Shown: in pieces, positions 21,033-62,143 of the stretch
How positions within the stretch are numbered: the first letter of the stretch is position 1
Layout of the letters: each line of letters opens with the position of its first letter
Virus record (IMG/VR): IMGVR_UViG_3300020049_008107
Coordinates: 1 to 64,000 of that record
DNA: 64,000 nucleotides
From: a virus
Taxonomy: Duplodnaviria; Caudoviricetes
Direction: 5' to 3' (one strand)
Program-made: the position numbers and the translations under genes
The notes under the pieces: model-generated
What the model was told of the DNA's origin: nothing
Seen by the model: the letters and a program-made list of their open reading frames with translations, nothing else
Database searches by the model: none

Positions 21033-21455
21033 TTATTTTAGATATTTCTTTATTGCTGCTAAAAACTTTGGCAAGTCACCATCATCTTTTAGTTTTACAA
21101 TGGTATCACTATTATATTCATTCCATTTTTTGTTTATAATTAAAACACCATAACCATCATCTCTTAAACCAAGTTTGTCGGCAGCAAGTTTAATCAAAGT
21201 ATTATTAGTTTTGTCCATTGTTGGAGTGCCGCCGACATTTGGAAAAAGTTTGATTATAACACCACTACTGTCTTTCTTTGGTCTAATGGTAACCGACAAA
21301 TCTGAGCTATTTAGCTCATCTGTTAGTTCTTTTATTTGGGCTTTTATGTCTTTTAGAACATTGTTAATGGCTGTTTGTACGATTTTGCCACCTTCAGCTT
21401 TTCTAACTATTCTATTAAGTTGTGATTTTGTGACTATATATTTCTTTTCTGTCAT
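21033..21455 (-). CDS. VTKSQ-leader protein 1
   Basis: Begins MTEKKYIVTKSQLNRIVRKA. Confidence 0.85.
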   Translation of the reverse strand: MTEKKYIVTKSQLNRIVRKAEGGKIVQTAINNVLKDIKAQIKELTDELNSSDLSVTIRPKKDSSGVIIKLFPNVGGTPTMDKTNNTLIKLAADKLGLRDDGYGVLIINKKWNEYNSDTIVKLKDDGDLPKFLAAIKKYLK

Positions 21456-21490
21456 TACCTTTATCTTTACCTAAATAAATATCGAATTTA

Positions 21491-21751
21491 TTACAGAGGT
21501 ATCATTATATTTTGTAGTTTAAACATTTCAAAGTTGTATTCTCTAAGTTTAACGGCATTTATCTCCATTAAATTCAAAGATTCAAGCTCTGTACCAAGTA
21601 GTTTATATGCTAGATGGTCTATGTCTTTATTTTCTATTGGAGCAATTAGTTTTTCTCCAGAATATGGAATAAACTTGTGTAGTATCTTTACATCTACTAA
21701 TTGACCATTTAGATTATACTTTGATGTAGAAACCCCAGTCCATTCAAGCAT
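21491..21751 (-). CDS. small baseplate protein (tail X / LysM-like)
   Basis: 86 aa; IDHLAYKLLG; located between tube initiator and hub. Confidence 0.5.
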   Translation of the reverse strand: MLEWTGVSTSKYNLNGQLVDVKILHKFIPYSGEKLIAPIENKDIDHLAYKLLGTELESLNLMEINAVKLREYNFEMFKLQNIMIPL

Positions 21752-21809
21752 GTCTTTAAATAACTATTTGGCGTATTTCTTGTTTATACCATAAACTAGC
21801 CCAATCCCA

Positions 21810-22199
21810 TTATTTTACCAAAATACCCATTTCTTTACCGTTTGGAATTCTTTTTTTTGTAAAAATGTCTAGGGCAGTTTCAATTTGTTTTTTATCCCAG
21901 TTTTTCCAGCGACTTTCTTTGACAAAAAAATCCTTTATTAGTTCATAAGCCCAGCCATCATCCTCTTTTATATCTTCTGGCGAATATCCTTCCATATCTT
22001 CATCGTTTGGATCATAACCATTAACAATCGATAACCAATTAGCCCATTGAGAATGTGAACCTATTGTCTTATCAAATATTTTAAAGAAATCTGGAGATTT
22101 TGTTATTTTTTCTAATTTTGCTTTATTTTTTGTGTCTTCATTAGCTTTCCTAACAATTCTTTGTAATTGACTTTTTGTAACTATAAATTTTTTTTCCAT
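21810..22199 (-). CDS. VTKSQ-leader protein 2
   Basis: Begins MEKKFIVTKSQLQRIVRKA. Confidence 0.85.
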   Translation of the reverse strand: MEKKFIVTKSQLQRIVRKANEDTKNKAKLEKITKSPDFFKIFDKTIGSHSQWANWLSIVNGYDPNDEDMEGYSPEDIKEDDGWAYELIKDFFVKESRWKNWDKKQIETALDIFTKKRIPNGKEMGILVK

Positions 22200-22232
22200 T
22201 AGTATATTACCATCATTTAAATAATATCAAGA

Positions 22233-22832
22233 TTAATACGGTCTGTTACCTTTTGGTTTAAATGTTTGTTGTGTGCCTTGAACAAATCCAGCAATAGAAC
22301 CAACTTTCCTTGCAATTATCCAAGCCCTATACAAAGCAGAATTCTCATCAAGAGTTAATTCCATATCAACCATTGTATAGGCAGCTAAACCAATCTTTGA
22401 CGTTAATCTAGTGTCATTATCAAATGAACATTTGGTTACCCAATATCTAAGTGGGGTTCTGTGTGTTCCCCAATTGTATATTACTGAAGGATTAGTACGA
22501 AATTGACTACTTGGTTGCAATAGTTTAAGCAAACTTGGTGAATCTTGATTGCGCAAGTTTTCAAATTGTGAAAGTTGTAGTGAGTTACCAGCAGCAGTTA
22601 AACGGTTAATAATTGGTAGTTGGAAGGACAACTTTGCAGAACCATTTCTATTAGGTTGAAGAGGAGTATAATTAAGTCCTGGTACTGTAATGTCTGCGAA
22701 TAATACATCTTTTGTATCAGACACTTTTAATGGGATGGTGCGTGAAGTTATAAAAAGATTGTTGGTGTCATCCCATATCCACCAATTTGTATATTTAAGA
22801 CCTTGAACTGCTTTTAGATTAAATCCAGGCAT
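22233..22832 (-). CDS. tail tube initiator-like protein
   Basis: 199 aa after the tape measure gene; IPLKVSD...VPGL...VIYNWG...VDMELT pattern. Confidence 0.6.
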   Translation of the reverse strand: MPGFNLKAVQGLKYTNWWIWDDTNNLFITSRTIPLKVSDTKDVLFADITVPGLNYTPLQPNRNGSAKLSFQLPIINRLTAAGNSLQLSQFENLRNQDSPSLLKLLQPSSQFRTNPSVIYNWGTHRTPLRYWVTKCSFDNDTRLTSKIGLAAYTMVDMELTLDENSALYRAWIIARKVGSIAGFVQGTQQTFKPKGNRPY

Positions 22833-24862: not shown

Positions 24863-24983
24863 AGTAATAAATAACCGATAGTAAAAATGAACTATGGCAG
24901 AGATAATGCAATAGACCTATCGAATCAGTAATGATAGCGAGGACTATGTACCTAAATGGTCACTTTAATTAGTTAGTTCAATT

Positions 24984-25070
24984 TGGATTGTGGTGAAAAT
25001 GGGTATACACGGAAGGCTAATGCTGTTCTCTGAGAAATCGGTTGTGAAGTTCGAATCTTTACCAATCCAA
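24984..25070 (+). tRNA. class II tRNA-like element with irregular anticodon arm (possible pseudo-tRNA)
   Basis: 7-bp acceptor TGGATTG/CAATCCA, D-arm GTG...CAC, T-loop TTCGAAT, variable hairpin TTCTC/GAGAA. Confidence 0.55.
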
Positions 25071-25088
25071 ATTTTATAAAGGTATAAT

Positions 25089-25394
25089 ATGATTGAACAA
25101 ATAATCTTCTCAATGCAGAAAATTAAAAGTGCTCTTATAAAGAGTGAATTTGATAAATATACTGCTAATGGTATTATAAAAAATCAGCGCCAGTCATACT
25201 TAATAGAAGACAACGACATTACATATATCATTTGCAATTTATTACCAATTGCAGAGATACAACTTGTTAATTATGGTGCTGGTAAAATGTCATTTTTTAC
25301 AGAGACATATATACCAGAACGACAAGTAGAGATGAAAGAAAAATTAAAGCTATTAATAAAAGATTATACGCCAATACAGGACTATTCAATATGA
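25089..25394 (+). CDS. hypothetical protein (plus-strand island)
   Basis: 101 aa; AAGG RBS. Confidence 0.65.
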   Translation: MIEQIIFSMQKIKSALIKSEFDKYTANGIIKNQRQSYLIEDNDITYIICNLLPIAEIQLVNYGAGKMSFFTETYIPERQVEMKEKLKLLIKDYTPIQDYSI

Positions 25395-25723
25395 TATCAA
25401 AAGAAGAATTTAAGGATAGAATTAAGAAAGGCAAGATTAAGAGCATAAAAGCTCTTAAATACCCATATCAAGAAGGCATTATACTTCGTTGGACGTTATA
25501 TGGTCTTGGTGGGGTTTTTGAAATGAACAACCTCGCTGGTGAATTCTGTAATGCTAAATGCAAGTTGTGTGTTAGCGTAGACAAGGCATATGACCTTATT
25601 GTAACCGGATTCTTTGAGTGTACTCAGAAATTGCCAGAAAAAGAGAGGCAGATAGTTAGAGATGATTACCAAAAAGCAAGAATGTCAGTTCAAGTTAATC
25701 ATACTCAAAGGAAATACTTATGA
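25391..25723 (+). CDS. hypothetical protein
   Basis: 110 aa; ATGA start/stop coupling. Confidence 0.65.
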   Translation: MISKEEFKDRIKKGKIKSIKALKYPYQEGIILRWTLYGLGGVFEMNNLAGEFCNAKCKLCVSVDKAYDLIVTGFFECTQKLPEKERQIVRDDYQKARMSVQVNHTQRKYL

Positions 25724-26049
25724 GTGCTGAATCTTGGAAAGGCGAGTTTTACTTTATTGAAGCAGAAGAATTGGCTAAAGACCAATATACCGACTTGGAT
25801 AGACTACAGCATGCAGAATTGAAATGGAGTGGCTTTTTACCTGAAAACCTAGCCAAGCATAACCTAATTAAACCACCAATTACTTTAGAAGCTGAAACCT
25901 GTTCTCTATGCTGCAGGTATTTATGTTTGGCTTGTGTTGTAAAAAAGGTTACTGGTGAATCATGCATTCAAGAGTATGAAAAATCGCAAACTGGTAACCC
26001 AGTATTCATTCTAGATTTAATAAAGAAGGTAAGAGATGGGATCACATAA
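25720..26049 (+). CDS. Cys-rich hypothetical protein
   Basis: 109 aa; CSLCCRYLCLAC. Confidence 0.65.
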   Translation: MSAESWKGEFYFIEAEELAKDQYTDLDRLQHAELKWSGFLPENLAKHNLIKPPITLEAETCSLCCRYLCLACVVKKVTGESCIQEYEKSQTGNPVFILDLIKKVRDGIT

Positions 26050-26323
26050 AACAACTAAGAACCAAATGCTTAAATTGCATTCTGCCTTAATTAAATCATT
26101 AGCAAGTGTATTACTAGAACCATTCAACCATTTGAAAGTTGATATAACATTTAGTAATAATGACAAATGTACCATTGAAATACAATGGCATACCAAAAAC
26201 AACTGTACTTTTAAAAGTGTTTATCAGTTTTATTCTTATGATGAAAACAAAGACTTTCTAGACAGAATTGTAAAAACGATATACATTTGTAATTTCGAAG
26301 AGTTTAAAAATCTTAAGTATTGA
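26036..26323 (+). CDS. hypothetical protein
   Basis: 95 aa in the island operon. Confidence 0.55.
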   Translation: MGSHKTTKNQMLKLHSALIKSLASVLLEPFNHLKVDITFSNNDKCTIEIQWHTKNNCTFKSVYQFYSYDENKDFLDRIVKTIYICNFEEFKNLKY

Positions 26324-26333
26324 GGTAAAAATT

Positions 26334-26627
26334 ATGACTGGATTTGATGATTTATTAGCAGAAGAAAAAAGGAAATGGGTGAAACAGCATAGAAGTGAAA
26401 ATAAGGGGATGTCTACAATATCCGCACTCATCATCACATTCATACTAATGATTGTTTTGGTAAAAGCCGTGTTTATCTTCATAGAACCAAAAATCGAAGG
26501 TGTTACTGAGTATTGGGATGAAACTAAACATCCAAATGGAGTTATTACTAGAGAAAGGAAATATATGATCACCCCAAAATCTGGTGGTATCATTCTTAAA
26601 AAAGGTATTGATAATGGAAAACCTTAA
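26334..26627 (+). CDS. single-pass membrane protein
   Basis: 97 aa; GAGG RBS; one hydrophobic helix. Confidence 0.65.
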   Translation: MTGFDDLLAEEKRKWVKQHRSENKGMSTISALIITFILMIVLVKAVFIFIEPKIEGVTEYWDETKHPNGVITRERKYMITPKSGGIILKKGIDNGKP

Positions 26628-27039
26628 AGAATACTACGAATTGTGCAAAACAATTAATCCCAAGACATTCAACTATGGTCGGTGGGAAGTTAATGACAAT
26701 TGTGGTACTATTGGTTGTTTGTGGGGACATGCTCCAATTCTATTACCAGACAAAATATTCAGATTTAAAGTAAATACAACAACAAGGTTGATTTCTACAA
26801 AGAGTTACTACGAAAGTAAGGTAATATGGTCACATAACAATCTTGGTGCTATTTATGAATATTTTAACCCAATTACTAAAAATGAGGAGTTTGCTTTGAA
26901 TGCAATATTCCTTGGAGATGGAAATTACATCAATGGTAGATTAATTGAAGCTATACCATCTGATGTAATGCAATCATATAACTTAGAATATGCACTTGAT
27001 AGATTTGCTGAAGTGCTTAATATTCTGGGTTTGGATTAG
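26584..27039 (+). CDS. hypothetical protein
   Basis: CGTIGCLWGHAP motif; true start probably MENLKEY. Confidence 0.6.
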   Translation: MVSFLKKVLIMENLKEYYELCKTINPKTFNYGRWEVNDNCGTIGCLWGHAPILLPDKIFRFKVNTTTRLISTKSYYESKVIWSHNNLGAIYEYFNPITKNEEFALNAIFLGDGNYINGRLIEAIPSDVMQSYNLEYALDRFAEVLNILGLD

Positions 27040-27331
27040 TATATTTGTTGGATTGACTTGATTGTTTCCTTTGCCATTCGGCAACTTGCAATGTTAGTTC
27101 ATGATATTCATCAAATGGAAGTTTCAAAAGGTCTTGGTAGGTTAATGCGCCTTTTGTCATTTCCATTATTGCAAGGGCTTCTTGATAAAATACTTCCTTG
27201 TTAAAATCAACAAATCTTAAACAGTCTATTATGTGAAACCAGGATAAAATCTTACCCTTAGTTTCAAGGTTCTTATACCAAGTTAGCTCTTCCCCACTCC
27301 TAATTGAGAGCGAAGAGCGTAAACGAAAAAA
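27017..27331 (-). CDS. -1 frameshift extension of the tail assembly chaperone (GT-like C-terminus)
   Basis: Slippery T TTT TTC at 27331-27325; -1 frame stays open to TAA at 27019-27017. Confidence 0.75.
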   Translation of the reverse strand, partial: FFRLRSSLSIRSGEELTWYKNLETKGKILSWFHIIDCLRFVDFNKEVFYQEALAIMEMTKGALTYQDLLKLPFDEYHELTLQVAEWQRKQSSQSNKYTNPNPEY

Positions 27332-28119
27332 GATGTAAAATCAAGAGCAGCTTCCCAATGTTTACCGCAAGATGGACATACTATTTCAATGAATGGATAA
27401 ACACCAAATCTACGCAAACCAACGGTTATCTGTTGCATATATCTGTAGTCATTGTATTTCACTAAATCATAAGGATAACGATTCTTAATTGTTTGAATGT
27501 CTTGTAGTCTGTCATCGATGGAAACTACTGAAGCACCAACTATTAATTCATGGTAAAGCTTGCGAAGTCTAGAACCGGTACTTGTAAGAGATGAGTCATT
27601 TTCTATCATTATCAAATCACCAATAGTTGGATCACGAAATGTAATAGAACTTACTTCTGCAGCAATCTCATCTCTATGTTTAAGCTCAATTTCATCGCCT
27701 TTATCAAAAGTAAGAGTAAACCAATCTGTTTGATAGTCAGCACTTTCAGCATAATGAACTGGAAGTTTATCAACATCATCTCTTGAATCAAAATCTCTTG
27801 ATTCTTCATGAATTACTTTATTACCACAGCCATTTCTAGGGCATGGGTACAACCCCTCAACGAGTGTTGGAAGTTTGTATAGTTTGAATAATTCCTTGGC
27901 TATGTATTCGGCAGAAACTAATGGTAGATTTTTTAGATCAGACAGCGATGGTTTCGTGTCCTCAATGGAATTAATACCACCATGCATTAGCGATAGTAAA
28001 GCTTGAGCATATTTGCCCTGTTCTGCTTTCTCATAAATGTTGAGGATTGTGTCCGAATCTGGTTTTTTAATTTCAACTTGTCGTTTGTTCTGTAAAGAAA
28101 TGGGCATTTTTAATATCAT
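27283..28119 (-). CDS. tail assembly chaperone / hub assembly protein
   Basis: Start corrected to 28119 (MILKMPISL; TTATTTA-N5 upstream); CPRNGC and CPSC motifs; lies between tube and tape measure genes. Confidence 0.7.
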   Translation of the reverse strand: MILKMPISLQNKRQVEIKKPDSDTILNIYEKAEQGKYAQALLSLMHGGINSIEDTKPSLSDLKNLPLVSAEYIAKELFKLYKLPTLVEGLYPCPRNGCGNKVIHEESRDFDSRDDVDKLPVHYAESADYQTDWFTLTFDKGDEIELKHRDEIAAEVSSITFRDPTIGDLIMIENDSSLTSTGSRLRKLYHELIVGASVVSIDDRLQDIQTIKNRYPYDLVKYNDYRYMQQITVGLRRFGVYPFIEIVCPSCGKHWEAALDFTSFFVYALRSQLGVGKS

Positions 28120-28140
28120 AACAATAAATAACCGATATGA

Positions 28141-28234
28141 AAGCCTAAAACGTGCTTGACAAGGAAAGGGGTATCTGTTATAATGACAATAGAAGGTATT
28201 ACTGATACCTCGATAAAAAATAAAGGAACAAACA
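28141..28234 (+). promoter_or_regulatory. repeated sigma70-type promoter cassette, copy 3 (type A)
   Basis: Perfect TTGACA (28156-28161), 17 bp spacer, TATAAT (28179-28184); AAGGA RBS. Confidence 0.92.
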
Positions 28235-28390
28235 ATGAAAGATAACAAAATATGGATGGTAGTGGTTGATTTTGGTGATTGTACTTCAGTTTATGGTAAA
28301 TACAATAAAAAAGAAGCTTTATTGAAATATGATGAAGCAAAGAAATATAAATCAGCAGTTGAAGTTAATTTGGTTAAGGTGGTAAAATAA
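28235..28390 (+). CDS. small early protein (absent from ORF track)
   Basis: 51 aa MKDNKIWMVVVDFG...; stop overlaps the next ATG. Confidence 0.7.
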   Translation: MKDNKIWMVVVDFGDCTSVYGKYNKKEALLKYDEAKKYKSAVEVNLVKVVK

Positions 28391-29097
28391 TGGAAGACAT
28401 CAAATCTAAAATCAAGAAACTCCTCTCATTGGCAACTAGTTCAAACGAAGCTGAAGCAATGTCCGCAATGACCAAAGCACAGGCACTAATGAATGAATAC
28501 CGCATCAGTAACCTAGACCTTGAGTTATCTGGAACTGATAATGAAATGGATATGTCATTAATTCAAGGACTTGGTAATTTTGACCATAAATGGAAGGGAT
28601 TATTAGCTCAAACCATAGCAGAAGCAAACTATTGTATGACTATCAAATTCGCAAATGTTGGAACTAAGATAGTTGGTCGTAAAGAGAATATACTTGTAGC
28701 GAATGCAATGTTTGAATATGTGTTGTCATTCATCAAATCTAAGAAGCTTGGAAGTGCTGATCTCAAGAATTATGGTCTTGGTTTCTGGTTAGGTCTAAAG
28801 TCTAAACTAGAGGAAGGTAAATCGGCTTGGGTAAATCAAACTCCTCATGCTGGAGAATTGGTAGTTGTTTACAATACCGAGATTACTAATCATCTTCAAA
28901 CTATTGGTATCAAGACCAAATCAGCACCAGTTAAATCCGGTATCTCTAGAAAAGGTGATATGGATTACTACGAAAACGGTATTAAAGATGGCAAGAATTT
29001 CAATTTATCAAAGCAAATGACCAGTAATGCTAAAGAATTAGAACAAAAATATGAATATGGCATGTCGCATATAAATGATCACCATTACTCATATTAA
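28390..29097 (+). CDS. DUF2786-like protein
   Basis: KIKKLLSLATSSNEAEAMSAMTKAQALMNEY N-terminus. Confidence 0.75.
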   Translation: MEDIKSKIKKLLSLATSSNEAEAMSAMTKAQALMNEYRISNLDLELSGTDNEMDMSLIQGLGNFDHKWKGLLAQTIAEANYCMTIKFANVGTKIVGRKENILVANAMFEYVLSFIKSKKLGSADLKNYGLGFWLGLKSKLEEGKSAWVNQTPHAGELVVVYNTEITNHLQTIGIKTKSAPVKSGISRKGDMDYYENGIKDGKNFNLSKQMTSNAKELEQKYEYGMSHINDHHYSY

Positions 29098-29120
29098 AAG
29101 ATTACCTTAGCTATTGAAGC

Positions 29121-29486
29121 TTACATAAAATAATCCATAAAATTTAGGTCGTTAACCAAAAGGTATTTTTGAAATCCAACTAATTCAGTAATACCTTTTG
29201 CACCTTTTAAAGGTGTAACTTCTTTGTACCCAAAATTTGGTATTTCACCAACAATCTTTTTCTTTAGTGTTTTAAGGTATACATCAAGTTGCTTTACTTG
29301 TTCTGGTTGTAACTTGTCACCAGCACCCATACTAACATCTTTGTATATTTCATTGGTGTCATAATTACATGAAGCCCAATTAGAAAGCCGAATATTCTTT
29401 TTAGTAAAGGCTTTTGGATCAAAATCAGCTTTTTGAACCAGTCTTTGTAATTGTGATTTAGTAACTATAAATTTCTTTTCTGTCAT
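29121..29486 (-). CDS. VTKSQ-leader protein 3
   Basis: Begins MTEKKFIVTKSQLQRLVQKA. Confidence 0.85.
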   Translation of the reverse strand: MTEKKFIVTKSQLQRLVQKADFDPKAFTKKNIRLSNWASCNYDTNEIYKDVSMGAGDKLQPEQVKQLDVYLKTLKKKIVGEIPNFGYKEVTPLKGAKGITELVGFQKYLLVNDLNFMDYFM

Positions 29487-29522
29487 TGGTTTTCTCTATC
29501 TGGTGGATTGGGCTCTTTTATA

Positions 29523-30302
29523 TTAAATAATACATCCACACCCACCAAAATCAAACTTGTCATCTCGGTTCAGTGTAAGTCCATTTTGGAGCATTGTTCT
29601 GTAATCTTCTAGCCACAAATAGTGTATTTTGCCATTAATGGTTTTACGTAAAAATGGTCTAACTTTGGGATGTTTTATTCTAATTTGCTTTTCTCTTTCA
29701 ACGTGTTTATTGTATACTTCAGGACGTTTTTCATATAATAGTTTAAATTGAGCAAGCCCAGACCTAACACAAAAACCAGAACAGTTGTCATGCACTAAGT
29801 CTTCCTTGTATGAATTAGAAGGTTGTATTCCTCTATCTAATGCGAATTGTATCTTCTCTTGTTTAGTTAGTTGAATCTTTTCTAATACCTGAATTGATGT
29901 ATATTTAACATGTTTATTTTTGGCAATTGCTGTATCAAGCCTGTGTGCTTCACTGTAGTCAATACCTAAATGCATCACAACCTTAGACCTATCAGGGAAA
30001 GTGGTAATTATCCATTTTTTAATAATCTTCTTTTTTAGTTCTAAAGAACATTGCTGCACTCGATTGTTTGATATGTACTTCTTATCTTCAAAAACATCCC
30101 ATAATCCACGACCATCGGTTAGCCTTATTAACTCAACACCAGTATAAGTAATGGTATCATCTAGAAATCGGTATAGATCATACCATTCTTCAGTAGTATC
30201 AGCAAACACTGCTTTTGTGTTTTCTATACCATAACGATCTTTAGTAAGACACAATTCTATAAAAGAACCCAATCCACCAGATAGAGAAACTATATGTAAC
30301 AT
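29523..30302 (-). CDS. PP-loop (PAPS reductase-like, adenine nucleotide alpha hydrolase) protein
   Basis: IVSLSGGLGS PP-loop, VFADT, HDNCSGFCVRSG, C-terminal GGCG. Confidence 0.75.
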   Translation of the reverse strand: MLHIVSLSGGLGSFIELCLTKDRYGIENTKAVFADTTEEWYDLYRFLDDTITYTGVELIRLTDGRGLWDVFEDKKYISNNRVQQCSLELKKKIIKKWIITTFPDRSKVVMHLGIDYSEAHRLDTAIAKNKHVKYTSIQVLEKIQLTKQEKIQFALDRGIQPSNSYKEDLVHDNCSGFCVRSGLAQFKLLYEKRPEVYNKHVEREKQIRIKHPKVRPFLRKTINGKIHYLWLEDYRTMLQNGLTLNRDDKFDFGGCGCII

Positions 30303-30315
30303 TCTCTAATATCGA

Positions 30316-31086: not shown

Positions 31087-31111
31087 ATAAGTAAATAACC
31101 GATAATAAAAC

Positions 31112-31492: not shown

Positions 31493-31638
31493 AATTTGAT
31501 ATATATTTTAATGAATATAACTACAGGTACACCATTATTGTCATACACAAAAGATAAAGAATGGATGGCTCTCAAAGATTTAGAAGACCGTAAAAAACAA
31601 AGCGGTCACATGTATCAATTTGAATTAATTCAATTATC

Positions 31639-32446: not shown

Positions 32447-32450
32447 TGTA

Positions 32451-32633: not shown

Positions 32634-32914
32634 GTGTTTTTTGGTTCGCCTTTCTGCATAAGACCACCACAGATTGATTTAAATTCAGTTATAATGTGCG
32701 AAACTGGTATAACCCCTACAACATGTTTGTGTAGTCTAAGGCATTGTACTACTCTGAGTATGCTGGTTTCATTAAGTTCTTTGTCTAGTATTAGAGCTAT
32801 ACACCTTTTTAGGTCTAATGATTGGTCGGGTGTTAATTCTTTTTTGCTGTGTTCTAATCTGTCTATTTCTTGGAATAGTGGTGATATGTGATAAGATTCT
32901 ACTATCAAGTCCAA
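32630..32914 (-). CDS. hypothetical protein
   Basis: 94 aa; coupled to the upstream leader protein. Confidence 0.5.
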   Translation of the reverse strand: MDLIVESYHISPLFQEIDRLEHSKKELTPDQSLDLKRCIALILDKELNETSILRVVQCLRLHKHVVGVIPVSHIITEFKSICGGLMQKGEPKNT

Positions 32915-33204
32915 CTAGTAACCAGATTGTACACAAGTTGTAGTGATTCCATTATTTTTTTTTGAATTTTTCTGTCTGTTATTTTCTGGGCATTACCCAT
33001 AGCTTCAGCGGTTGCTTGCTGTAAGTGGAGTTTGGTCATTTCAAATGCTTCATCAAATTCGTCTTCTAAATACTTATCCTTCCAGTTATCTTTTCCACCA
33101 ACAGCCGATTCAAAGGCAACGGGTGATTTTGGATCAACTTCGTCTTTAGCTTTAATTACTAAACGTTTTAATTGTGATTTGGTTACTAGGTATTTGGAAT
33201 CCAC
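32905..33204 (-). CDS. VTKSQ-leader protein 4
   Basis: GTG start; MDSKYLVTKSQLKRLVIKA. Confidence 0.85.
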   Translation of the reverse strand: MDSKYLVTKSQLKRLVIKAKDEVDPKSPVAFESAVGGKDNWKDKYLEDEFDEAFEMTKLHLQQATAEAMGNAQKITDRKIQKKIMESLQLVYNLVTSWT

Positions 33205-33725: not shown

Positions 33726-33727
33726 TT

Positions 33728-34694: not shown

Positions 34695-36854
34695 CTATAT
34701 TTCTTCTAAATAAAATATGTATTTATAAGTCAAATGTGTTTCATTTATCTTAGTAACATTATATACTAAATTTCTTGGCAGGAGTACTTCAAATTCCTTA
34801 TCCTCAAATGAACCAGCAAGCTTGTTGATATACACACCAGATTTAGTTTGTATTATCATCCTATAAGGTCTATTAAAAGCCTTATCTTCTTTAATAGAGG
34901 TAGAGGTAAATCCGCGTAAAATAAGTGGTTGTTTAGCATTAAATCTGTCTAATATTACCTTAGCTAACTGGTCTGTATCAAATCCCCTATATACAACACC
35001 AGCAAATTTAGGTGCATACAGTAGGAATCTATCAACATTTCTAATGTCAACTAGCTCATTAGCGGTTAATTTAGTATTAAACCTAAGTCCTTGATTATAA
35101 TCATGACCTGAACCAGTGTATGCACTAACCGATTGTACTATGTCAGGAGACTTAGCCTTTACATCACTAATATACTTATTAATATTCTTTTCATGATTTT
35201 TAGGTACAATATCCATCACCCTAGACATACCAAGACTAGACAGGTCTTTACTTGTCGGATCATAAGGCAAACAAGTAGTAGATTCAATATGTTGTATCAT
35301 TTGTGACACTTCAGACTTCGAATTTACCCTAATACCAGTAGTTAGTTCATACCAAGTAGTTAGCTTTTTAAATTTAGGGTGTGACTGTAATTCACCCATA
35401 TCAGTATCAAGTATATCATTCTTCTCATTTTTATCAAGTACTACAGCAGAACCATAATTGTTATTGATAAATCTTTTTTGCATATAATTAAATCTTGCTT
35501 TAAGAATGGCATATATACTACTAGTTTTAATAACGTTTAGTACTTTAAGCATTTGGGGTTGATATTTATTGAACTGTTTAATTAAGTCGTCTTCATCTAA
35601 AGCACCAAACACCTTAGAAGCTTCTGGATTTATACTACCATTACGCATAGTCTCAAATTCTGTCACTTCTTTGGTAAGGTCTTTATTTCCACCAGTAGCC
35701 TTGTAGGTTAGTGCGCCACCATTATCAATCCTATAGACCTTACCATCTTTTACTATGATATTGCTACCACCAGTACCAATTACATCCCAATTTCCAAGCC
35801 ATGCATCAATGATAAATGAGGAACGAAGTTTAAGTATAGCCGAATTTCTATCATTTTCAGAAAGCTTACCAAATTCAGTGCCATCAATATACTTAGATAG
35901 TTGGTATGCCTTACCTTGGTCATCGGATTTGATTGTAGTTTCTGGTACATCAATACCAATAGTGTTGTATATGCTATTAGCTAAACTTTCACTCTGTATG
36001 TGTCCAGCACTAGCACCATATTTTTGAACATAGACTATTCCATCGACTAACACTGGTTTTGCTCCAGTAGAAGATGAACCAATAATTGGTAAAGTGGGTG
36101 TTACATTAGCAGACTTTGGAAGTGCCGTTTGATTAGAAGTCTTATCCTCAAGCTTTATACCAGTTCCATAAGTCTTAATAAGATATAAGATTTCGAGTTT
36201 GGTCATTGATGATATCTTATCACCTTGAACTTTACCAATGTCACCCAGATAGTATAATTGCTCTTGTATAAATGGATCAGCATGGAACTTCTGAATTGTT
36301 AAGAACTTATATTTGTCTAATGGGTGTGGTTCTGGTTTCTTATTTGCTACAGTTCCAGTTGATGATAATGGTGTAGATGTAGTGGGTTTGTCTAGTTTGG
36401 ACTTATTTCCACTATCAATCTTATCAGTATATTTTTGATATAAAGTAACAATTAGAGTATTTGATATAGAAGAGTTTGTTGGAACTAACCACTTGAAAAA
36501 TCTCCAATCTGGAAATACATTTGGATAAAATGTCCACTTATTAAGCATTCTATTAAATGCATCAAAAGCTTCAGGACTAGACCTTTTTAATAAGACGGTT
36601 TTAACTAGTGCTGATACTAATTTTGTAGTGTCGGCATTCATATAATTAATGAATTCGCGTTTTTTGGTTCGGTCTAGATAAAAACCAGAGTAACCCTTTA
36701 ATATGTGGATTTTTGATGCTTTATTGGCAAATATCTGTTTAAATGTTGAAGTAATAGAAGAACTATTAAAATTAGATGTTACATCAGTTGATTTTCTTAC
36801 TAATATTGATGTAGCTTGAAGATGTAAAGATTTTAATACCTCAAGTCTATGCAT
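34695..36854 (-). CDS. kinase-like domain fused to an ADP-ribosyltransferase domain (Alt/VIP2-like)
   Basis: 719 aa; YVQK...SESLA...DAWLGNWDVIG...NII...RIDNG; C-terminal VYRG, FTSTS, EFEVLLPR. Confidence 0.85.
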   Translation of the reverse strand: MHRLEVLKSLHLQATSILVRKSTDVTSNFNSSSITSTFKQIFANKASKIHILKGYSGFYLDRTKKREFINYMNADTTKLVSALVKTVLLKRSSPEAFDAFNRMLNKWTFYPNVFPDWRFFKWLVPTNSSISNTLIVTLYQKYTDKIDSGNKSKLDKPTTSTPLSSTGTVANKKPEPHPLDKYKFLTIQKFHADPFIQEQLYYLGDIGKVQGDKISSMTKLEILYLIKTYGTGIKLEDKTSNQTALPKSANVTPTLPIIGSSSTGAKPVLVDGIVYVQKYGASAGHIQSESLANSIYNTIGIDVPETTIKSDDQGKAYQLSKYIDGTEFGKLSENDRNSAILKLRSSFIIDAWLGNWDVIGTGGSNIIVKDGKVYRIDNGGALTYKATGGNKDLTKEVTEFETMRNGSINPEASKVFGALDEDDLIKQFNKYQPQMLKVLNVIKTSSIYAILKARFNYMQKRFINNNYGSAVVLDKNEKNDILDTDMGELQSHPKFKKLTTWYELTTGIRVNSKSEVSQMIQHIESTTCLPYDPTSKDLSSLGMSRVMDIVPKNHEKNINKYISDVKAKSPDIVQSVSAYTGSGHDYNQGLRFNTKLTANELVDIRNVDRFLLYAPKFAGVVYRGFDTDQLAKVILDRFNAKQPLILRGFTSTSIKEDKAFNRPYRMIIQTKSGVYINKLAGSFEDKEFEVLLPRNLVYNVTKINETHLTYKYIFYLEEI

Positions 36855-36855: not shown

Positions 36856-37014
36856 TTAGTTTGTAGATAACATTTCTTCCATGTCTTGTGGTAAATTGAG
36901 TGAATTGTAGAGCTTGTCTACTGCAAAATCCAAATCTGACTTCTTTATATCAGTGGGTTTGTCTTTTGCAGGAGCCTCAGGCTCTGGTATTAAGTCGGAA
37001 TCTTCATCTTTCAT
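36856..37014 (-). CDS. small acidic protein (absent from ORF track)
   Basis: 52 aa MKDEDSDLIPEPE...; ATGA-coupled to leader protein 5. Confidence 0.5.
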   Translation of the reverse strand: MKDEDSDLIPEPEAPAKDKPTDIKKSDLDFAVDKLYNSLNLPQDMEEMLSTN

Positions 37015-37286
37015 AATTTGGCAAGCTCAGCATCAACAACAGACTTTGATTTTGAAAAGTCCTTATTTTTGCCTTGTTTTAGTATCTTATCTGTAGCTTT
37101 ATCAATTATTGACCAATTAGAAGTCTTTCTATTAACAAAACACTCAAGAATTTTTTGGTCATCATTAATAACAGTTTTAGTAAACCCATTACCAGCAGCA
37201 TTAAGTTTCCAATCATCAGTTACACTAACTGCCTTCTGTACCAGTCTTTTTAGTTGACTCTTTGTAACTATAAATCTTTTTTCCAT
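37011..37286 (-). CDS. VTKSQ-leader protein 5
   Basis: Begins MEKRFIVTKSQLKRLVQKA. Confidence 0.85.
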   Translation of the reverse strand: MEKRFIVTKSQLKRLVQKAVSVTDDWKLNAAGNGFTKTVINDDQKILECFVNRKTSNWSIIDKATDKILKQGKNKDFSKSKSVVDAELAKL

Positions 37287-51965: not shown

Positions 51966-51977
51966 AAGATTAAATAA

Positions 51978-53232: not shown

Positions 53233-53651
53233 TAAGGATTAAGTTTACTTCCAATAGAATAATAGTAATGAATACGCCTTAATTCTCCTGTAGGAGTCCG
53301 TACATGCAAAGCGGTAAGGTCTGAAAACCCACCACTAAAACCATTAGTGACTGGTATCCAAAGGTTGTTGTTGTTAAACATTACCTCGAAGTTAGTAAGG
53401 TCGCCAGCTTTAATTTTAGGAATGACCGAATCATCTTTATCTTCAAAAGTTGCATAAATACTAACAAATGTTAGTCCATCAAACTTAGCTATATCAATCG
53501 CTTGTGAGACAAGTGGAGCAATGAGGACAAAATCTTCAATATCAACACCCTCATTACGTTCAAATAGCATTTGAGGAATAGTTATATCCTTTGGGGTATT
53601 ACTGTCAGTTTGTTTTTGAAGGGTAGTAGTCAAGATGAATTTGGTAGCCAT
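53232..53651 (-). CDS. hypothetical virion-region protein
   Basis: 139 aa; TTATTTA-N5 upstream. Confidence 0.65.
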   Translation of the reverse strand: MATKFILTTTLQKQTDSNTPKDITIPQMLFERNEGVDIEDFVLIAPLVSQAIDIAKFDGLTFVSIYATFEDKDDSVIPKIKAGDLTNFEVMFNNNNLWIPVTNGFSGGFSDLTALHVRTPTGELRRIHYYYSIGSKLNP

Positions 53652-53665
53652 ACAATTAAATAAGT

Positions 53666-53899
53666 CTACTTTCTAATTCCCAATTTCTGGAATGTTCTAC
53701 CAACTAACGATTTATTAACTGGCGTATATAACCTTTCAACATATTGGTCATCTTTCCACTTAATTTGTCCATTGTCGTAAGCTCTACCAGTCGCCATACA
53801 CATTTGGCATTCTATATCCCTAAATGGTTTGCCAATATAGGTATGTAAAGTAAGATACGAGTTGTGTTTGCATTTAATTCTTTGTTGTGTTTCGCTCAT
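53666..53899 (-). CDS. small Cys/His protein
   Basis: CKH...CQMC; CGATATTA-N4 upstream. Confidence 0.6.
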   Translation of the reverse strand: MSETQQRIKCKHNSYLTLHTYIGKPFRDIECQMCMATGRAYDNGQIKWKDDQYVERLYTPVNKSLVGRTFQKLGIRK

Positions 53900-53913
53900 A
53901 CAATAATATCGAA

Positions 53914-54129
53914 CTAATATTGAAAATAATCGGCAAATCCAGATTCACCTTCGCCCAATACAAGACGAAGTTCATTTTTGAGTTGTTCTGGAGTCCAATT
54001 ATTCTTTTGTGCTTTAATCATAATCTCTTTAGTTTCATCTTCAAGTACCTTCATAAGAGCAGTCATGTCAACCGATAATTCAGTTGATTGGTCTTCTACA
54101 AGTGAAGTATTTACTGATGGAACGGACAT
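53914..54129 (-). CDS. hypothetical protein
   Basis: 71 aa; coupled start. Confidence 0.55.
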   Translation of the reverse strand: MSVPSVNTSLVEDQSTELSVDMTALMKVLEDETKEIMIKAQKNNWTPEQLKNELRLVLGEGESGFADYFQY

Positions 54130-55159: not shown

Positions 55160-55546
55160 CTACTTCATTAAACCAGCAACTACACTAGAACCAACACCGA
55201 ACCTACCTAATGGATACGATGTCCCATTGGCAACAAAAACTAGATTGACTACATCAGCATTATCACCATCTACAATCTTGAGTTCACCTTTAATTTTCTT
55301 CCTTTCACCCAAAGCAGCCTTTTGCACTAGTCTTTTTAATTGTGATTTGGTAACTATTATTTTATCTTCTGACTTAGCAACCAATTTTAGTTTACCAGTG
55401 CGTATTTTATCCTTAATGTTTGCAATCATTTCTTGATATTTAGTACCATTAAGACTATACACTAAGGACTTATTATCATTATCAATTTCGATTATCTTTA
55501 ATGTACCTTGACCTGATTGTATTCTATCACCAATTTTTAATTCCAT
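55160..55546 (-). CDS. protein with an internal VTKSQ motif (member 10)
   Basis: LVAKSEDKIIVTKSQLKRLVQKA; core motif at residues 63-77. Confidence 0.8.
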   Translation of the reverse strand: MELKIGDRIQSGQGTLKIIEIDNDNKSLVYSLNGTKYQEMIANIKDKIRTGKLKLVAKSEDKIIVTKSQLKRLVQKAALGERKKIKGELKIVDGDNADVVNLVFVANGTSYPLGRFGVGSSVVAGLMK

Positions 55547-55549: not shown

Positions 55550-56092
55550 TTATACCTTATATTGAATGCTATGTTCTAAGAAACCTTTTGCAAGTAAAGC
55601 ATCTCTAATTATGATATTACTTACTTTAGCAATTCCCTTTTCGAACTTGACCTTATTGTTTTCGTCAATCTCTACAATACCCTCCCACCCTTCACCTTCC
55701 ATATTATCGGTATGAGCGATAACCCAATAATCAATTTCTCGTTCTGATTTTTGAACTGGCGGTTTAACATCTGTATTGTATGGTTCATGAATAAACTTCA
55801 TATCTTCCATAGACTTGATTAATTGACCAGATGAAATTCCAGGAGGCAAATCTAAAGCAACACGACCATCTTCTAAAGTAAGGAAGATTACATTGCCATT
55901 AAGCCTAATAGAACTTCCAGATTTACCTTTTGAAGCAGCATGTGGCAAAAAGAAGTGTATTTTACCATCTTCCCACTCAACAGGTTTGGATTCGATATCA
56001 TCTTCTAATACAGATTGAGCTTGAGTTTCCTCAAGCCCATCAAGGATACTAGAAGAGGAAACCGATTTGTCAGTTTTCCTCTTAAGTGCCAT
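55550..56092 (-). CDS. hypothetical protein downstream of the capsid gene
   Basis: 180 aa; coupled to the capsid stop codon. Confidence 0.65.
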   Translation of the reverse strand: MALKRKTDKSVSSSSILDGLEETQAQSVLEDDIESKPVEWEDGKIHFFLPHAASKGKSGSSIRLNGNVIFLTLEDGRVALDLPPGISSGQLIKSMEDMKFIHEPYNTDVKPPVQKSEREIDYWVIAHTDNMEGEGWEGIVEIDENNKVKFEKGIAKVSNIIIRDALLAKGFLEHSIQYKV

Positions 56093-57486
56093 TATTCTAC
56101 CCTAAGTCCTCGTGTAACATAACTTGAATCTGCAAAACTAGGAACTAATGCACCATAGGTTTTGATAAGGAACGGAAGTTCGTCATCTGTTTTAGCTAAT
56201 TCTTCAACAGTAACTAAACCATTGAATTTAGAACCAGCAGTATTAGTATAGGCGAATTTACCAAGACCTTGGATTTTATCCAAATCCCATAACCAAACAG
56301 ACTCTGGAGCTACACTACCAGTTGCAACGTAAGGTCTGTCATCAACTTGTGTACCTTTAATTTCAGCAGTTGGAATTGTAGGATTAACGGTAAATGTATA
56401 ACCAGTTGTATCACCAGTAATTGTACCAGCACCATCGTAAGTAAATGCCGAGATAATTCTTACAAGAGTAGCAGTTGCAGCACTAGTACCGCAGTAAATA
56501 CGGTATTGTAAAGCATCAGCTTCTGCTGTCCATGTAAGGTTAATTACAGAAGTTGCACCAGTAGTAGTTACAGCAATAGGGGTACTTGCTAATTGTTCAC
56601 CATTGTATGAGCAATGAGAAACATAAAAATAATAAGTATTAGCTGGAACTGTTCCACCAGTAGTTGGTTCAGTATGTCCAATAGCACCAGTTTGGAATTG
56701 TGGTTTGGTAAATGTAGTCTCAATGATTGGGATATTACGGTAAGCATTTAAACGCCAACCACCATTAATCTCAATTTGAGTTAATCCAGAACCAGTAAGT
56801 CCTTGCATTAATCGTACATTCTCAAGAAGTCTAGAAACCTTAGATAGCATTTCAGGAGACATAACGATTGCCTTTTTATGGTGTGCACCTTGTTTACGGG
56901 TGTTGTTGTCAATCATATCGTCAAGAAATTTAAGATTTGCTGGAACTTCCCCACCAAGAGCCTTATTCTTACGATTGATAGAACCATGAATGAATGAATC
57001 TATACCAGAGAATTCAAACCCGTTTGCATCATTGTTTCCATAGTAAAGATAGAAACTTAAATCAAGTGCATGAGCATAAAGATGGTTTTCCATCTCAACA
57101 GCAGCAGCATCGATGTACTTTTCAGAAGCATCTTTTAAGAAGTTGGTAACAGCACCCTTTCTTCTGATAATACGCATTCTAACCCCATCTCTGAGGTATT
57201 GAGCATTACGAGTGGGAGTTGTCGCACCTTCACCCATAGCACCACCTTGTTTAGGAAGAGCCACTAAGCGGTTGAACTCATGCAATTTTTGGTTATCAAA
57301 CTCTGGCTCAATAATCGCCATTTCTGGCAATAGATAGAGAACAGTATTTGTGATAACTTGTTCGAGTTTTTGTGGGATGAGTGCTTCACCTTGATTAGTG
57401 ATAGAACTCAATGCCTTTTGTACAAGATTCTTGGCATTACCAGAGAACTTGTTTACTTGATTAAAGACCTGTGTGTTTGATAACAT
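56092..57486 (-). CDS. major capsid protein
   Basis: 464 aa; follows protease/scaffold; LVQK|ALSS...LIPQKLEQVIT; HK97-like pattern with an inserted Ig-like domain. Confidence 0.9.
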   Translation of the reverse strand: MLSNTQVFNQVNKFSGNAKNLVQKALSSITNQGEALIPQKLEQVITNTVLYLLPEMAIIEPEFDNQKLHEFNRLVALPKQGGAMGEGATTPTRNAQYLRDGVRMRIIRRKGAVTNFLKDASEKYIDAAAVEMENHLYAHALDLSFYLYYGNNDANGFEFSGIDSFIHGSINRKNKALGGEVPANLKFLDDMIDNNTRKQGAHHKKAIVMSPEMLSKVSRLLENVRLMQGLTGSGLTQIEINGGWRLNAYRNIPIIETTFTKPQFQTGAIGHTEPTTGGTVPANTYYFYVSHCSYNGEQLASTPIAVTTTGATSVINLTWTAEADALQYRIYCGTSAATATLVRIISAFTYDGAGTITGDTTGYTFTVNPTIPTAEIKGTQVDDRPYVATGSVAPESVWLWDLDKIQGLGKFAYTNTAGSKFNGLVTVEELAKTDDELPFLIKTYGALVPSFADSSYVTRGLRVE

Positions 57487-60027: not shown

Positions 60028-60810
60028 TTATTTCTTAAGCTGCATGTCATAGCGAATGGAACATCTACAACCAGCGATATCCTCTAAAGTAGCACCAAGA
60101 GAGGAATCATGTGGATGTTTCATTACCACTGTTTTATTGGTCTTAGGATTCTTATAGGTAAAGTTTTGATCATTCGGAATAGTCTTGCCATGCAATTTGA
60201 GATGTTCATGTCTAGGTACTTTTGATTTTTTATTATGAATCCAGGTTTTTGTAAAAACCAACTTAGGGTTTTTCTTTTTTAATTGATCAATATACCCATG
60301 TCTCATCTCATTTGAAGTAGACATAATCTCAGTAACTGCAATAGTCTTTATATTTGGTGGAATACCAGTTTTCTTATCTTTCTTGGTATATCCAGCATAC
60401 GTCTCTCGGAGTTTCTGTTCAAAGACTTCGACCAACTTATCATTAACCTTACCAGCATACCTACCACGCTGCGCAGAAGTCTGTACTTCTCTTATTGTGT
60501 CATTAAGGTCTTGAATTAGCTTATCTCGAAGAGTGTTAGTAATAATCTTGCCACCTTCTGCAGATTTTTTAGTGAGAAGGTCATCAGTCATTATCTCTTT
60601 GAAATTAGGAAATAGGACTTGCTTTGGTTTATTCCCTTTTAATTTAGCAATATGATCATCAACACGTTTATTTGAAATATTGAGCATATTTGATGCAACT
60701 TGTTTGGAATTATTCTTAAGTATTAATTGAACAAGGTCTTGGTAATTCTTACCATTCCAACCTAATTTGCCATACTTCTTCTTAAGATAATCTAAATCGC
60801 GTTTTGCCAT
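60028..60810 (-). CDS. MuF-like minor head protein
   Basis: IAVTE, KTWIH...PRHEHLKLHG, HPHD...IAGCRCS. Confidence 0.85.
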   Translation of the reverse strand: MAKRDLDYLKKKYGKLGWNGKNYQDLVQLILKNNSKQVASNMLNISNKRVDDHIAKLKGNKPKQVLFPNFKEIMTDDLLTKKSAEGGKIITNTLRDKLIQDLNDTIREVQTSAQRGRYAGKVNDKLVEVFEQKLRETYAGYTKKDKKTGIPPNIKTIAVTEIMSTSNEMRHGYIDQLKKKNPKLVFTKTWIHNKKSKVPRHEHLKLHGKTIPNDQNFTYKNPKTNKTVVMKHPHDSSLGATLEDIAGCRCSIRYDMQLKK

Positions 60811-60811
60811 T

Positions 60812-61639
60812 TTATGCTAGGTGTTCAAACCCCTTACGTACAAAACCATTACCATTTTTCTTTGGAACAAACTCAAATTGCTCTTCTTTTTGAAATAGCT
60901 TCTCCTCGTCAAAAATGGGCATATCTTGAGCTTTACTAACAGTCACTAAATCCGGAATTTTACCAACTTTCTTACGAAGGTCTTGTATTTCCTTTTGTAA
61001 TTGCCTATTTTCAATAAATAGTTCATGGTGTGCATCTTCAGCAATAATTGGTATATCTTGACCATTAGCAACCTTCTTTTGGTATTGCATGTTTTCAAGA
61101 CCAATACGGCTAGTGGTACGACTTATCCAACTAACAACTGGAGACAATGTACCTCGAAGAACAAAAACCGACAATTGAACCACTTCGCCTATCGGATGAG
61201 TTAGAGGACTAAATACCTTCATAAAATCACCAGAAAACTGGAGCTTTCTAATATCAACTTCCTTAAGTACTCTATCAATAAATCTCATTACGATAAATGA
61301 GCCATAACCAACAACAATACCATACAACGCAAAAACAATCATAATTGTTTTAAACATTTCAAGACTTACACTAGAGATTGCAAATAATGGGAAAAAGTTG
61401 AAAAAGACAACTATTCCAACAATTACAAACCCCATATTGTACAAGTTGCGCCACGCTCTAGATTCTTGTATTGAATCGTAAAGAATTACGTAACTAAATA
61501 TTGCAATATAATTACCAGTGACTACCCAAAATCCAGCCGATTCTCTTTCTGGATACAAAAAGAAAAACAACATATAAAGAGCGGACATACCAGTAATTAG
61601 CCAAAGTTTTTTATGGTCTTGTATCTGTAGCATGTCCAC
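60812..61639 (-). CDS. multi-pass membrane protein with coiled-coil tail
   Basis: 275 aa; about four transmembrane helices. Confidence 0.6.
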   Translation of the reverse strand: MDMLQIQDHKKLWLITGMSALYMLFFFLYPERESAGFWVVTGNYIAIFSYVILYDSIQESRAWRNLYNMGFVIVGIVVFFNFFPLFAISSVSLEMFKTIMIVFALYGIVVGYGSFIVMRFIDRVLKEVDIRKLQFSGDFMKVFSPLTHPIGEVVQLSVFVLRGTLSPVVSWISRTTSRIGLENMQYQKKVANGQDIPIIAEDAHHELFIENRQLQKEIQDLRKKVGKIPDLVTVSKAQDMPIFDEEKLFQKEEQFEFVPKKNGNGFVRKGFEHLA

Positions 61640-61764
61640 CTCTTAAAAAGATCAAAAATCCAACTACCAGCATAAAAATGAGCACTGGATAGATTACATA
61701 TTTTAACAAAGATGGTATTACATATACAAAAAATGCAATCATGATTGGTAATATAAGTATGAAT

Positions 61765-61962
61765 CTAAGGACTTGCAATATCGTAATCCTCTGTGACATT
61801 ACCAATACAGTGACCTTTCTTATCCCAAACTTGAGCATGCCACCAACCATTAATACCAGCAGCAGTTTTACCAGCATAACCATTATGAGTTTCACTAGTT
61901 ACTTTGGCTTCAGTTCCATTTTTAAGTTTTATGGTTTTGTTTGGATCAACAACAATTTTCAT
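61765..61962 (-). CDS. hypothetical protein
   Basis: Start reassigned to MKIVVDPNK (CGATAATA-N5 upstream). Confidence 0.55.
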   Translation of the reverse strand: MKIVVDPNKTIKLKNGTEAKVTSETHNGYAGKTAAGINGWWHAQVWDKKGHCIGNVTEDYDIASP

Positions 61963-61978
61963 AATATTATTATCGTAC

Positions 61979-62143
61979 TTATGACCTTGTGTAGCGTTCA
62001 ATTGATGTAGGCAAAGAATCTGGCATTTCGAGTTCGTCAATGAACTTTCTCATAGTATCTAAATTTAATTCTTTATCCTCTTCTCTTATACGTTTAATTA
62101 CTCGTACAAGTTGAGATTTAGTAACTACAAATTGCTTTTCCAC
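61979..62143 (-). CDS. VTKSQ-leader protein 11 (absent from ORF track)
   Basis: GTG start with AAGGA RBS; (M)EKQFVVTKSQLVRVIKRIREE..., 54 aa. Confidence 0.75.
   Translation of the reverse strand: MEKQFVVTKSQLVRVIKRIREEDKELNLDTMRKFIDELEMPDSLPTSIERYTRS

Follow-up and report, generated by a model that had tools for sequence, protein, structure and literature searches.

Eleven unrelated proteins of an LE3-like phage share a basic leader peptide that may address them to the procapsid

Eleven otherwise unrelated small proteins encoded in the first 64 kb of the IMG/VR virus record IMGVR_UViG_3300020049_008107 (hereafter the window, 64,000 nucleotides in all) carry one and the same 19-residue leader peptide, built around the string VTKSQ. 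Reading the sequence evidence as a whole, we put at about one in two the probability that this leader is a procapsid-targeting propeptide, that is, a detachable address that would bring diverse payloads into the assembling head and be cut off there by the phage's own maturation protease. The record is a complete genome of 73,734 bp with a 121-bp terminal direct repeat, and the uncultured phage it represents is a contractile-tailed, 74-kb LE3-like myovirus, not a T4-like one.

The leader follows the pattern x-E-K-K-[FYI]-[IVL]-V-T-K-S-Q-L-x-R-[LIV]-[VI]-x-K-[A/S/G], and alignment of the 11 copies gives the consensus M-E-K-K-F-I-V-T-K-S-Q-L-x-R-L-V-x-K-A, in which V-T-K-S-Q and the Arg three residues on are invariant. 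Ten copies are N-terminal and one is internal, and all lie on the minus strand in the very open reading frames (ORFs) to which a first-pass annotation had assigned them (Table 1). The exact string VTKSQ occurs 12 times in six frames, against roughly 0.1 occurrences expected by chance on a rough estimate; the twelfth, at 43329 on the minus strand, lies out of frame inside ORF 42947-43576, six codons ahead of the stop in a non-coding frame, and is either chance or a remnant. No further copies are found in the remaining 9.7 kb of the genome. The invariant Ser is encoded by AGT (n = 2), TCA (n = 6) or TCT (n = 3), the Arg and Leu residues change codon family too, and mean pairwise identity across the leader codons is 50% at third positions against 77% at first and second positions. 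This third-position divergence, together with the codon-family switches, indicates at the codon level that selection on the leader acts on the peptide, as the first-pass annotation had argued from the Ser codons. No conserved DNA precedes the start codons of the leader ORFs, and a portable promoter cassette was set aside as a reading because the upstream DNA is unconserved. The net charge of the leader is +3 to +5, and the peptide probably forms a basic amphipathic strand followed by a helix; a signal peptide was considered and dropped, the leader being charged and not hydrophobic.

What the leader is attached to differs from gene to gene. The ORFs range from 54 to 213 residues, and the bodies left after removal of the leader from 35 to 188 residues, with isoelectric points of 4.5–9.6. 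No pair of leader-stripped bodies among the 11 window ORFs is significantly similar by BLASTP (best E 0.065), the sole exception to their mutual unrelatedness being an internal duplication within ORF 55160-55546, whose N-terminal and C-terminal halves resemble each other (E 6e-4). Neither Pfam nor PHROGs reveals a family common to the leader ORFs, and neither matches a MuF domain on them, MuF being encoded here by a separate gene. The mutual dissimilarity reported in the first-pass annotation thus withstood alignment, and full-length homology of the kind that would mark a paralogue family was looked for and not found beyond the leader.

The same pattern of constant leader and changing body extends to other genomes. 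A leader profile searched against 1.84 billion representative proteins returned 32 proteins at E < 0.001, the same set as that obtained by a word-indexed search, and some 25 of the 32 come from other genomes, in which M-E-[KQ]-K-F-I-V-T-K-S-Q-L-[KQ]-[KR]-L-V-x-K-[S/A/G] heads still different bodies; the contigs encoding them are relatives of the window phage. Two metagenomic contigs from one sample (L012 and L139), with backbone proteins 83–96% identical to those of the window phage, carry five leader genes in the interval from the portal gene to the gene past the adaptor, compared with two in the window phage. Of these five, the one behind the portal gene has a different body, another splits two genes that are adjacent in the window, and a third is a stand-alone version of the C-terminal half of ORF 55160, found as a separate 71-residue ORF that is headed by the leader and lies on the opposite side of the adaptor gene (P0025; L139 4287-4502). 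At the place of ORF 61979, L012 carries a different, 127-residue leader ORF; at the place of ORF 21810, a more distant relative (L013) carries a different one of 175 residues, and the L013 tail module holds leader genes with other bodies. A leader retained among relatives while payload, copy number and position change fast is, as far as these contigs can tell, behaving as the tag of an accessory cargo set, which bears out the interchangeable payloads that the first-pass annotation had proposed.

If the leader is to be removed in the procapsid, the phage should encode a protease that can remove it. The candidate is a 632-residue ORF (ORF 57490) that lies between the portal and capsid genes, just upstream of the latter, and that is predicted with moderate confidence to be a protease-scaffold fusion. 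Within its predicted protease domain of approximately 197 residues, conserved among seven homologues, D-x-H-G-E and G-F-S-x-E-G are invariant, and Ser150 is the putative catalytic residue. An AlphaFold model (predicted local distance difference test score, pLDDT, 62; predicted template modelling score, pTM, 0.61) retrieves with Foldseek many prohead proteases of the HK97/COG3740 kind, with probabilities up to 1.0 and weak E-values, and PHROG 1028, "head maturation protease", matches weakly over the Ser motif (E 0.0036). Pfam Peptidase_S78 (PF04586) gives no match to this ORF at E <= 1, nor does any other Pfam family, and the N-terminal domain is at best a divergent S78 member; a profile of the ORF returned only low-complexity noise from the PDB. 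The scaffold part, 435 residues long, has a net charge of -35 and contains three [ST]-D-E-E-L-x-x-A-[LM] repeats, features that would suit a scaffold. No match to the T4-type S77 protease (PF03420) was found in the complete genome.

Sites resembling the end of the leader recur in this ORF and in the capsid protein (the arrow marks the putative cut). Within the protease-scaffold ORF, candidate sites read AVSK↓AL (197), LVEK↓G (291) and LVKK↓S (593). The first, at the boundary of protease and scaffold, is A-V-x-K-A-L in all seven homologues, and at the other two positions V-x-K is retained and the next residue is G, A, N or S, one of these positions reading M-V-T-K-S in two homologues. The N-terminus of the capsid protein reads L-[IV]-x-K-A-L, with K24 present in 120 of 120 homologues, A25 in 118 and L26 in 119; the match between leader end and capsid noted in the first-pass annotation is indeed there, as LVQK-A at capsid residues 21-25. 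In the leader itself, the final Lys position is occupied by Lys in 33 of 34 distinct leaders and by Arg in one, 29 have S, A or G directly behind this position, and conservation does not continue beyond that residue. Across the proteome, [LIVM]V.K[ASG] occurs 27 times, compared with 5.7 in shuffles, and 19 of these occurrences lie within leader ORFs; of the other eight, three fall in the first 25 residues of their proteins. The capsid protein of HK97 is cut between Lys103 and Ser104 by its own protease. The HK97-type protease of phage phi12 likewise has Lys or Arg at P1 (PMC8569155). The leader holds two candidate sites, I-V-T-K↓S and L-V-x-K↓[A/S], and the invariant core V-T-K↓S-Q could thus itself be cut, in which case the mature proteins might begin with Ser-Gln and not with the Ala or Ser after the last Lys. 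In ORF 55160, V-x-K↓[S/A] occurs three times in succession.

No other single line of evidence argues as strongly for a maturation cleavage site at the end of the leader as a comparison with a different group of phages. A degenerate leader pattern had no match in IMG/VR, and its matches in metagenome and genome contigs were rejected as mostly out-of-frame or chance (e.g., the N-terminus of a 417-residue bacterial ORF), with one exception, a TARA contig (L004) that carries M-I-V-T-K-S-Q-L-R-R-L-I along with several copies of M-K-I-T-R-R-Q-L-R-Q-I-I-K-E-E. This contig led to a sister leader of uncultured marine T4-like phages, M-K-I-T-K-x-Q-L-K-x-I-I-K-E-E, which is present at no fewer than 120 IMG/VR loci, as many as eight copies lying within 3 kb, and chiefly on contigs of 50–370 kb. 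At least 258 copies were counted, and among the matches listed 237 of 258 have a Met two residues before the core and are thus N-terminal, on different bodies; some read I-T-K-S-Q-L-K-Q-I-I. Among 69 sister copies unselected for their ends, Glu stands at the position aligned with the final Lys in 60 and is followed by another Glu in 46. Lys-ended forms are all but missing from the marine set: a Lys-ended pattern yields only 12 single matches, and the leader-like ones read I-I-x-K-E, a register shift that still gives Glu. A gp21-type S77 protease is encoded on eight of ten marine contigs tested (all five large contigs and three of five fragments), and gp21 cuts after L/I-x-E (PMC9026906). The comparison suggests that the end of the leader tracks the type of protease, I-K-E going with a Glu-specific enzyme and V-x-K with an HK97-type one, and by extension that the leader may work like the capsid-targeting sequence (CTS) of T4. 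Searching the literature by sequence strings, we found no paper containing the MKITK leader sequence. In one marine phage (L150, IMGVR_UViG_3300032138_000002), a single long ORF contains four to five leader copies reading I-T-K-S-Q-L-K-Q-I-I-K-E-E, spaced 130–190 residues apart, like a cargo polyprotein.

A three-step scheme would accommodate these features. First, during procapsid assembly, the basic leader would dock the nascent protein on the acidic scaffold of the protease-scaffold fusion, a step for which the opposite charges of leader and scaffold may be counted. Second, the co-assembled protease would cut after the Lys of [LIV]-[VI]-x-K↓[A/S/G], at either site in the leader, and the same type of cut would shorten the capsid protein at its N-terminus and take the scaffold apart. 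Leaders placed internally between domains, as in ORF 55160 and L150, are as expected of a cut-and-release signal. Third, the small payloads thus freed would remain inside the head until they pass into the cell along with the DNA, and together they would make up an exchangeable accessory repertoire. A bolder and more tentative extension, to which we would give somewhat less than an even chance, is that one portable addressing helix, (I/V)-T-K-x-Q-L-K-x-(I/L)-(I/V), serves both T4-like phages and an unrelated lineage with an HK97-type protease, its last residues retuned to Glu for gp21-type and to Lys for HK97-type enzymes.

A number of observations weigh against the propeptide interpretation. 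At the leader itself, the residue after the last Lys can be A, S, G, T, D, M or I, and the final site is not cleanly formed in two of the window copies. The site is defined by few residues, and its eight occurrences outside the leaders represent no enrichment over the approximately five expected. In the capsid protein, the residues ahead of K24 are fairly conserved too, and the invariant K-A-L may reflect structure, not cleavage. The switch between Glu and Lys could reflect charge matching with a binding partner rather than protease specificity. Pfam S78 does not match the protease domain, which is assigned from motifs, a model of moderate quality (pLDDT 62) and fold matches with weak E-values. 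The gene arrangement is less telling than the first-pass annotation had supposed: the copies do lie on the strand of the virion genes, which is the strand of nearly all genes, and, rather than all standing singly between structural genes, several are in accessory blocks among non-structural genes, including lysis-like and methyltransferase genes. Finally, the leader is absent from LE3 and LE4, the nearest cultured relatives, and from the more distant L016, L017 and L138, the capsids of LE3, L016, L017 and L138 being 45–70% identical to that of the window phage.

Could the leader serve to bind something without being removed? Chief among the alternatives, and unlikely in our estimate, is that it is a docking or oligomerization handle to a common partner and not a protease-removed signal for the capsid interior; candidates for the partner are a component of the tail or of the virion surface, a chaperone of assembly and, for self-association, the leader proteins. 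A conserved amphipathic strand-plus-helix on variable bodies is what such a handle would look like, the genes are spread along the whole virion module with some next to tail genes, and the residue past the last Lys is not strictly conserved. Such a handle, however, leaves unexplained why conservation stops exactly at K-[S/A/G], why the capsid N-terminus and the protease/scaffold boundary both retain the site, and why Glu occupies the aligned residue in phages with a Glu-specific protease. More improbable is that the leader acts inside the infected cell, as a helix binding nucleic acid or a host target or as a handle for a modifying enzyme, and that the proteins are non-virion accessory factors. 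The leader is strongly basic, several copies sit in accessory blocks with non-structural genes, and by eye it resembles the strand and first helix of ribbon-helix-helix proteins; against this, most bodies contain nothing like a second ribbon-helix-helix helix, and a ribbon-helix-helix half-motif was set aside as a reading because by eye the bodies share no common second helix. Nor do we know of a case in which one effector helix is common to 11–40 unrelated bodies; no candidate modifying enzyme was seen linked to the leader genes, and the link between leader end and protease type would go unexplained. It is highly improbable that a shared 5′ end is kept for DNA or RNA reasons, such as cassette recombination or translation initiation, with the peptide incidental: leader genes do move and swap between close relatives, and T-even ip loci are known recombination hotspots (PMC12373910), yet the low third-position identity, the codon-family switches of Ser, Arg and Leu and the unconserved upstream DNA all speak against it. 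An ordinary paralogue family recognizable only by its N-terminus deserves next to no weight, given window bodies of such different lengths without BLASTP similarity or a common Pfam or PHROGs family and a sister leader on hundreds of different bodies, even if P0027 and P0031, from different genomes, look related over their bodies by eye and ORF 55160 is internally duplicated.

Read as a procapsid-targeting propeptide, the leader invites comparison with several known systems, of which the T4 CTS is the closest in principle: it brings internal proteins that are unrelated to one another into the core of the scaffold, after which it is cleaved off (PMC3012670, PMC9026906, PMC12373910). As in T4 and other T-even phages (IPI, IPII, IPIII, Alt), a short N-terminal peptide is found here on otherwise unrelated proteins; T4 CTS proteins are non-essential and polymorphic, and the payload genes here likewise turn over quickly; the CTS ends in a site fitting its own prohead protease, and the present leader ends in a candidate site for an HK97-type enzyme; and an Alt-like ADP-ribosyltransferase is encoded here too. 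The two differ in that the leader bears by eye no likeness to MKTYQEFIAE and has 19 residues instead of 10, that the putative cut would fall after Lys and be made by an HK97-type protease-scaffold fusion rather than after Glu by gp21 (S77), and that its genes are scattered singly and not gathered in ip loci. The MKITK leader of marine phages shares the core [IV]-T-K-x-Q-L-[KR]-x-[IL]-[IV], the N-terminal position, the many unrelated small bodies and the occasional internal copy. It starts with Met-Lys, ends in I-K-E-E and belongs to phages with S77, whereas the present leader is longer by four to five residues at its N-terminus, has an invariant Ser and an L-V-x-K-[S/A/G] end, and belongs to a phage with a predicted HK97-type protease and no S77. 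The first-pass annotation had called the tag different from known ones, which holds for its Lys end and the accompanying HK97-type protease and fails to the extent that the Glu-ended marine leader is its sister. The giant phages phiKZ, 201phi2-1 and SPN3US similarly have a very short motif at which the prohead protease trims many of their head and ejection proteins, although there a relative of gp21 cuts after S/A/G-x-E and the propeptides are not one shared leader (PMC9026906, PMC5694885). MuF polymorphic toxins differ in carrying an N-terminal MuF/SPP1 gp7 domain on the cargo, for which the leader ORFs have no match. The C-terminal targeting tail of the HK97 protease, the C-terminus of the P22 scaffold and the cargo-loading peptides of encapsulins all attest that short portable peptides are sufficient for loading HK97-fold shells. 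Unlike the leader, these peptides are C-terminal, bind the shell protein, are not found on an accessory cargo family and are not removed as leaders. The principle being already known for T-even phages, what this LE3-like phage adds is best regarded as a variant of it, Lys-ended and accompanied by an HK97-type protease-scaffold.

The genome around the leader genes is that of a stretched LE3. LE3 homologues in the same order are found for most structural proteins (portal, MuF-like protein, 632-residue protein, capsid, adaptor, sheath, tube, tape measure, baseplate and fibre), the capsid protein is 48% identical to those of the Leptospira phages LE3 and LE4, whose capsids likewise show the K-A-L site and whose protease-scaffold proteins are 37–41% identical to the one here, and the virion module spans approximately 50 kb, compared with approximately 22 kb in LE3, stretched by inserted accessory genes and blocks. 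No near relatives were found among cultured phages by megablast or in IMG/VR by a capsid-based scan. A study of LE3 and LE4 included virion mass spectrometry, without N-termini, and did not recognize the capsid protein (PMC6078989). Two large blocks stand out. One, located midway along the virion module (24973-34051, approximately 9 kb) and with no counterpart in LE3 or L013, holds many small plus-strand ORFs, a PP-loop-like ORF of 259 residues (29523-30302) and two leader ORFs. The other, a 10.5-kb insert relative to LE3 (43628-54129) between the adaptor-side genes and a 209-residue neck gene, holds four leader ORFs together with holin-like membrane proteins, a weak endolysin match (46198-46944) and ORFs of 555, 309 and 201 residues with weak matches to tail proteins. 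A D12-class N6-adenine DNA methyltransferase (PF02086, E 1.7e-13) is encoded on the minus strand at 42043-42756, in an insert between neck and tail genes. At 60812-61639 and 61611-61895 (minus strand) lies a 275-residue protein, the N-terminal half of which is multi-helical and strongly hydrophobic; relatives have it conserved at this position too, between their portal and MuF genes, and a head module is an unusual setting for something so membrane-like. In the leaderless relative L017, adjacent ORFs of 131 and 192 residues (7229-8225) share V-A-K-S-[KR]-W-Q-T-K-D-G-K-W-W near their N-termini.

Two of the neighbouring or leader-bearing genes suggest what kind of payload might be carried. The ADP-ribosyltransferase ORF (34695-36854), which lacks the leader, is inserted with a leader ORF and a 52-residue ORF between the sheath and tube genes, and full-length or partial homologues are found in head modules, after the portal gene in L017 and before the protease-scaffold gene in L138. 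By analogy with T4 Alt, it may be a packaged enzyme or a further head cargo; its N-terminal LVRK↓S was dropped as firm evidence of a propeptide because the L138 homologue begins M-V-R-K-S. ORF 43922, the true start of which is probably the second ATG, has a body matching phrog_4301, a viral family of unknown function. It is on account of its Atlas neighbours alone, which include clusters with Phage_T7_kinase in 11–17% of their members, that a T7-kinase-like fold may be considered as a lead only. By eye, the sequence also shows a glycine-rich loop and a VLK motif. A single-sequence structure model was too poor for a fold search (pLDDT 47), and the sequence has no relevant match among solved structures.

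Table 1. Coordinates of the leader ORFs and of the head and neighbouring genes discussed in the text.
Feature	Coordinates	Strand	Details
Leader ORF, 140 residues	21033..21455	-	Leader 21393-21452
Leader ORF, 129 residues, downstream of tape-measure gene	21810..22199	-	Leader 22140-22199
Leader ORF, 121 residues; orthologues P0008, P0010	29121..29486	-	Leader 29424-29483
Leader ORF, 99 residues, GTG start	32905..33204	-	Leader 33145-33204
719-residue protein with C-terminal ADP-ribosyltransferase domain (PF03496, E 1.2e-7, above cut-off), no leader	34695..36854	-	I-L-V-R-K↓S at residues 18-24
Leader ORF, 91 residues, first of three-gene insert between sheath and tube genes	37011..37286	-	Leader 37227-37286
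Leader ORF, 213 residues	43922..44563	-	Leader 44483-44542; body matches phrog_4301, E 5.8e-9
Leader ORF, 75 residues	44938..45165	-	Leader 45106-45165
Leader ORF, 94 residues; orthologue P0015	51978..52262	-	Leader 52206-52262, variant end VIHKMQ
Leader ORF, 102 residues	52627..52935	-	Leader 52873-52932
ORF of 128 residues, internal leader between two small similar domains	55160..55546	-	Leader 55313-55372, residues 58-77
Major capsid protein, 464 residues, SU10-type	56092..57486	-	Candidate propeptide site L-V-Q-K↓A-L, residues 21-26 (nucleotides 57409-57426)
Predicted HK97-type prohead protease (~1-197) fused to acidic scaffold (198-632), 632 residues	57490..59388	-	Motifs, fold matches, phrog_1028
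MuF/SPP1 gp7-like head morphogenesis protein, 260 residues	60028..60810	-	Domain match
Leader ORF, 54 residues, GTG start, directly downstream of portal gene	61979..62143	-	Leader 62084-62143, atypical end VIKRIR
Portal protein	62145..63683	-	PF04860 in homologue

To our knowledge, loading of protein cargo by a shared leader has been shown experimentally for T-even phages only. There, the cargo consists of injected inhibitors of host defence, and the leader serves as a tool for packaging foreign proteins. If the leader described here is indeed a procapsid-targeting propeptide, the principle would appear to be general across tailed phages, and a simple sequence rule, a leader core followed by an end matched to the phage's own protease, would help to find injected proteins in metagenomes. 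It would also provide a second, orthogonal packaging tag, and it would turn some 11 genes in this phage and some 25 elsewhere into candidate effectors of the first minute of infection. Should one portable helix prove to be shared with the marine T4-like phages, it would amount to a general and engineerable code for head loading, and even mid-sized phages would deliver a dozen interchangeable effectors by injection; in this phage, a kinase-like protein and an ADP-ribosyltransferase might be among them.

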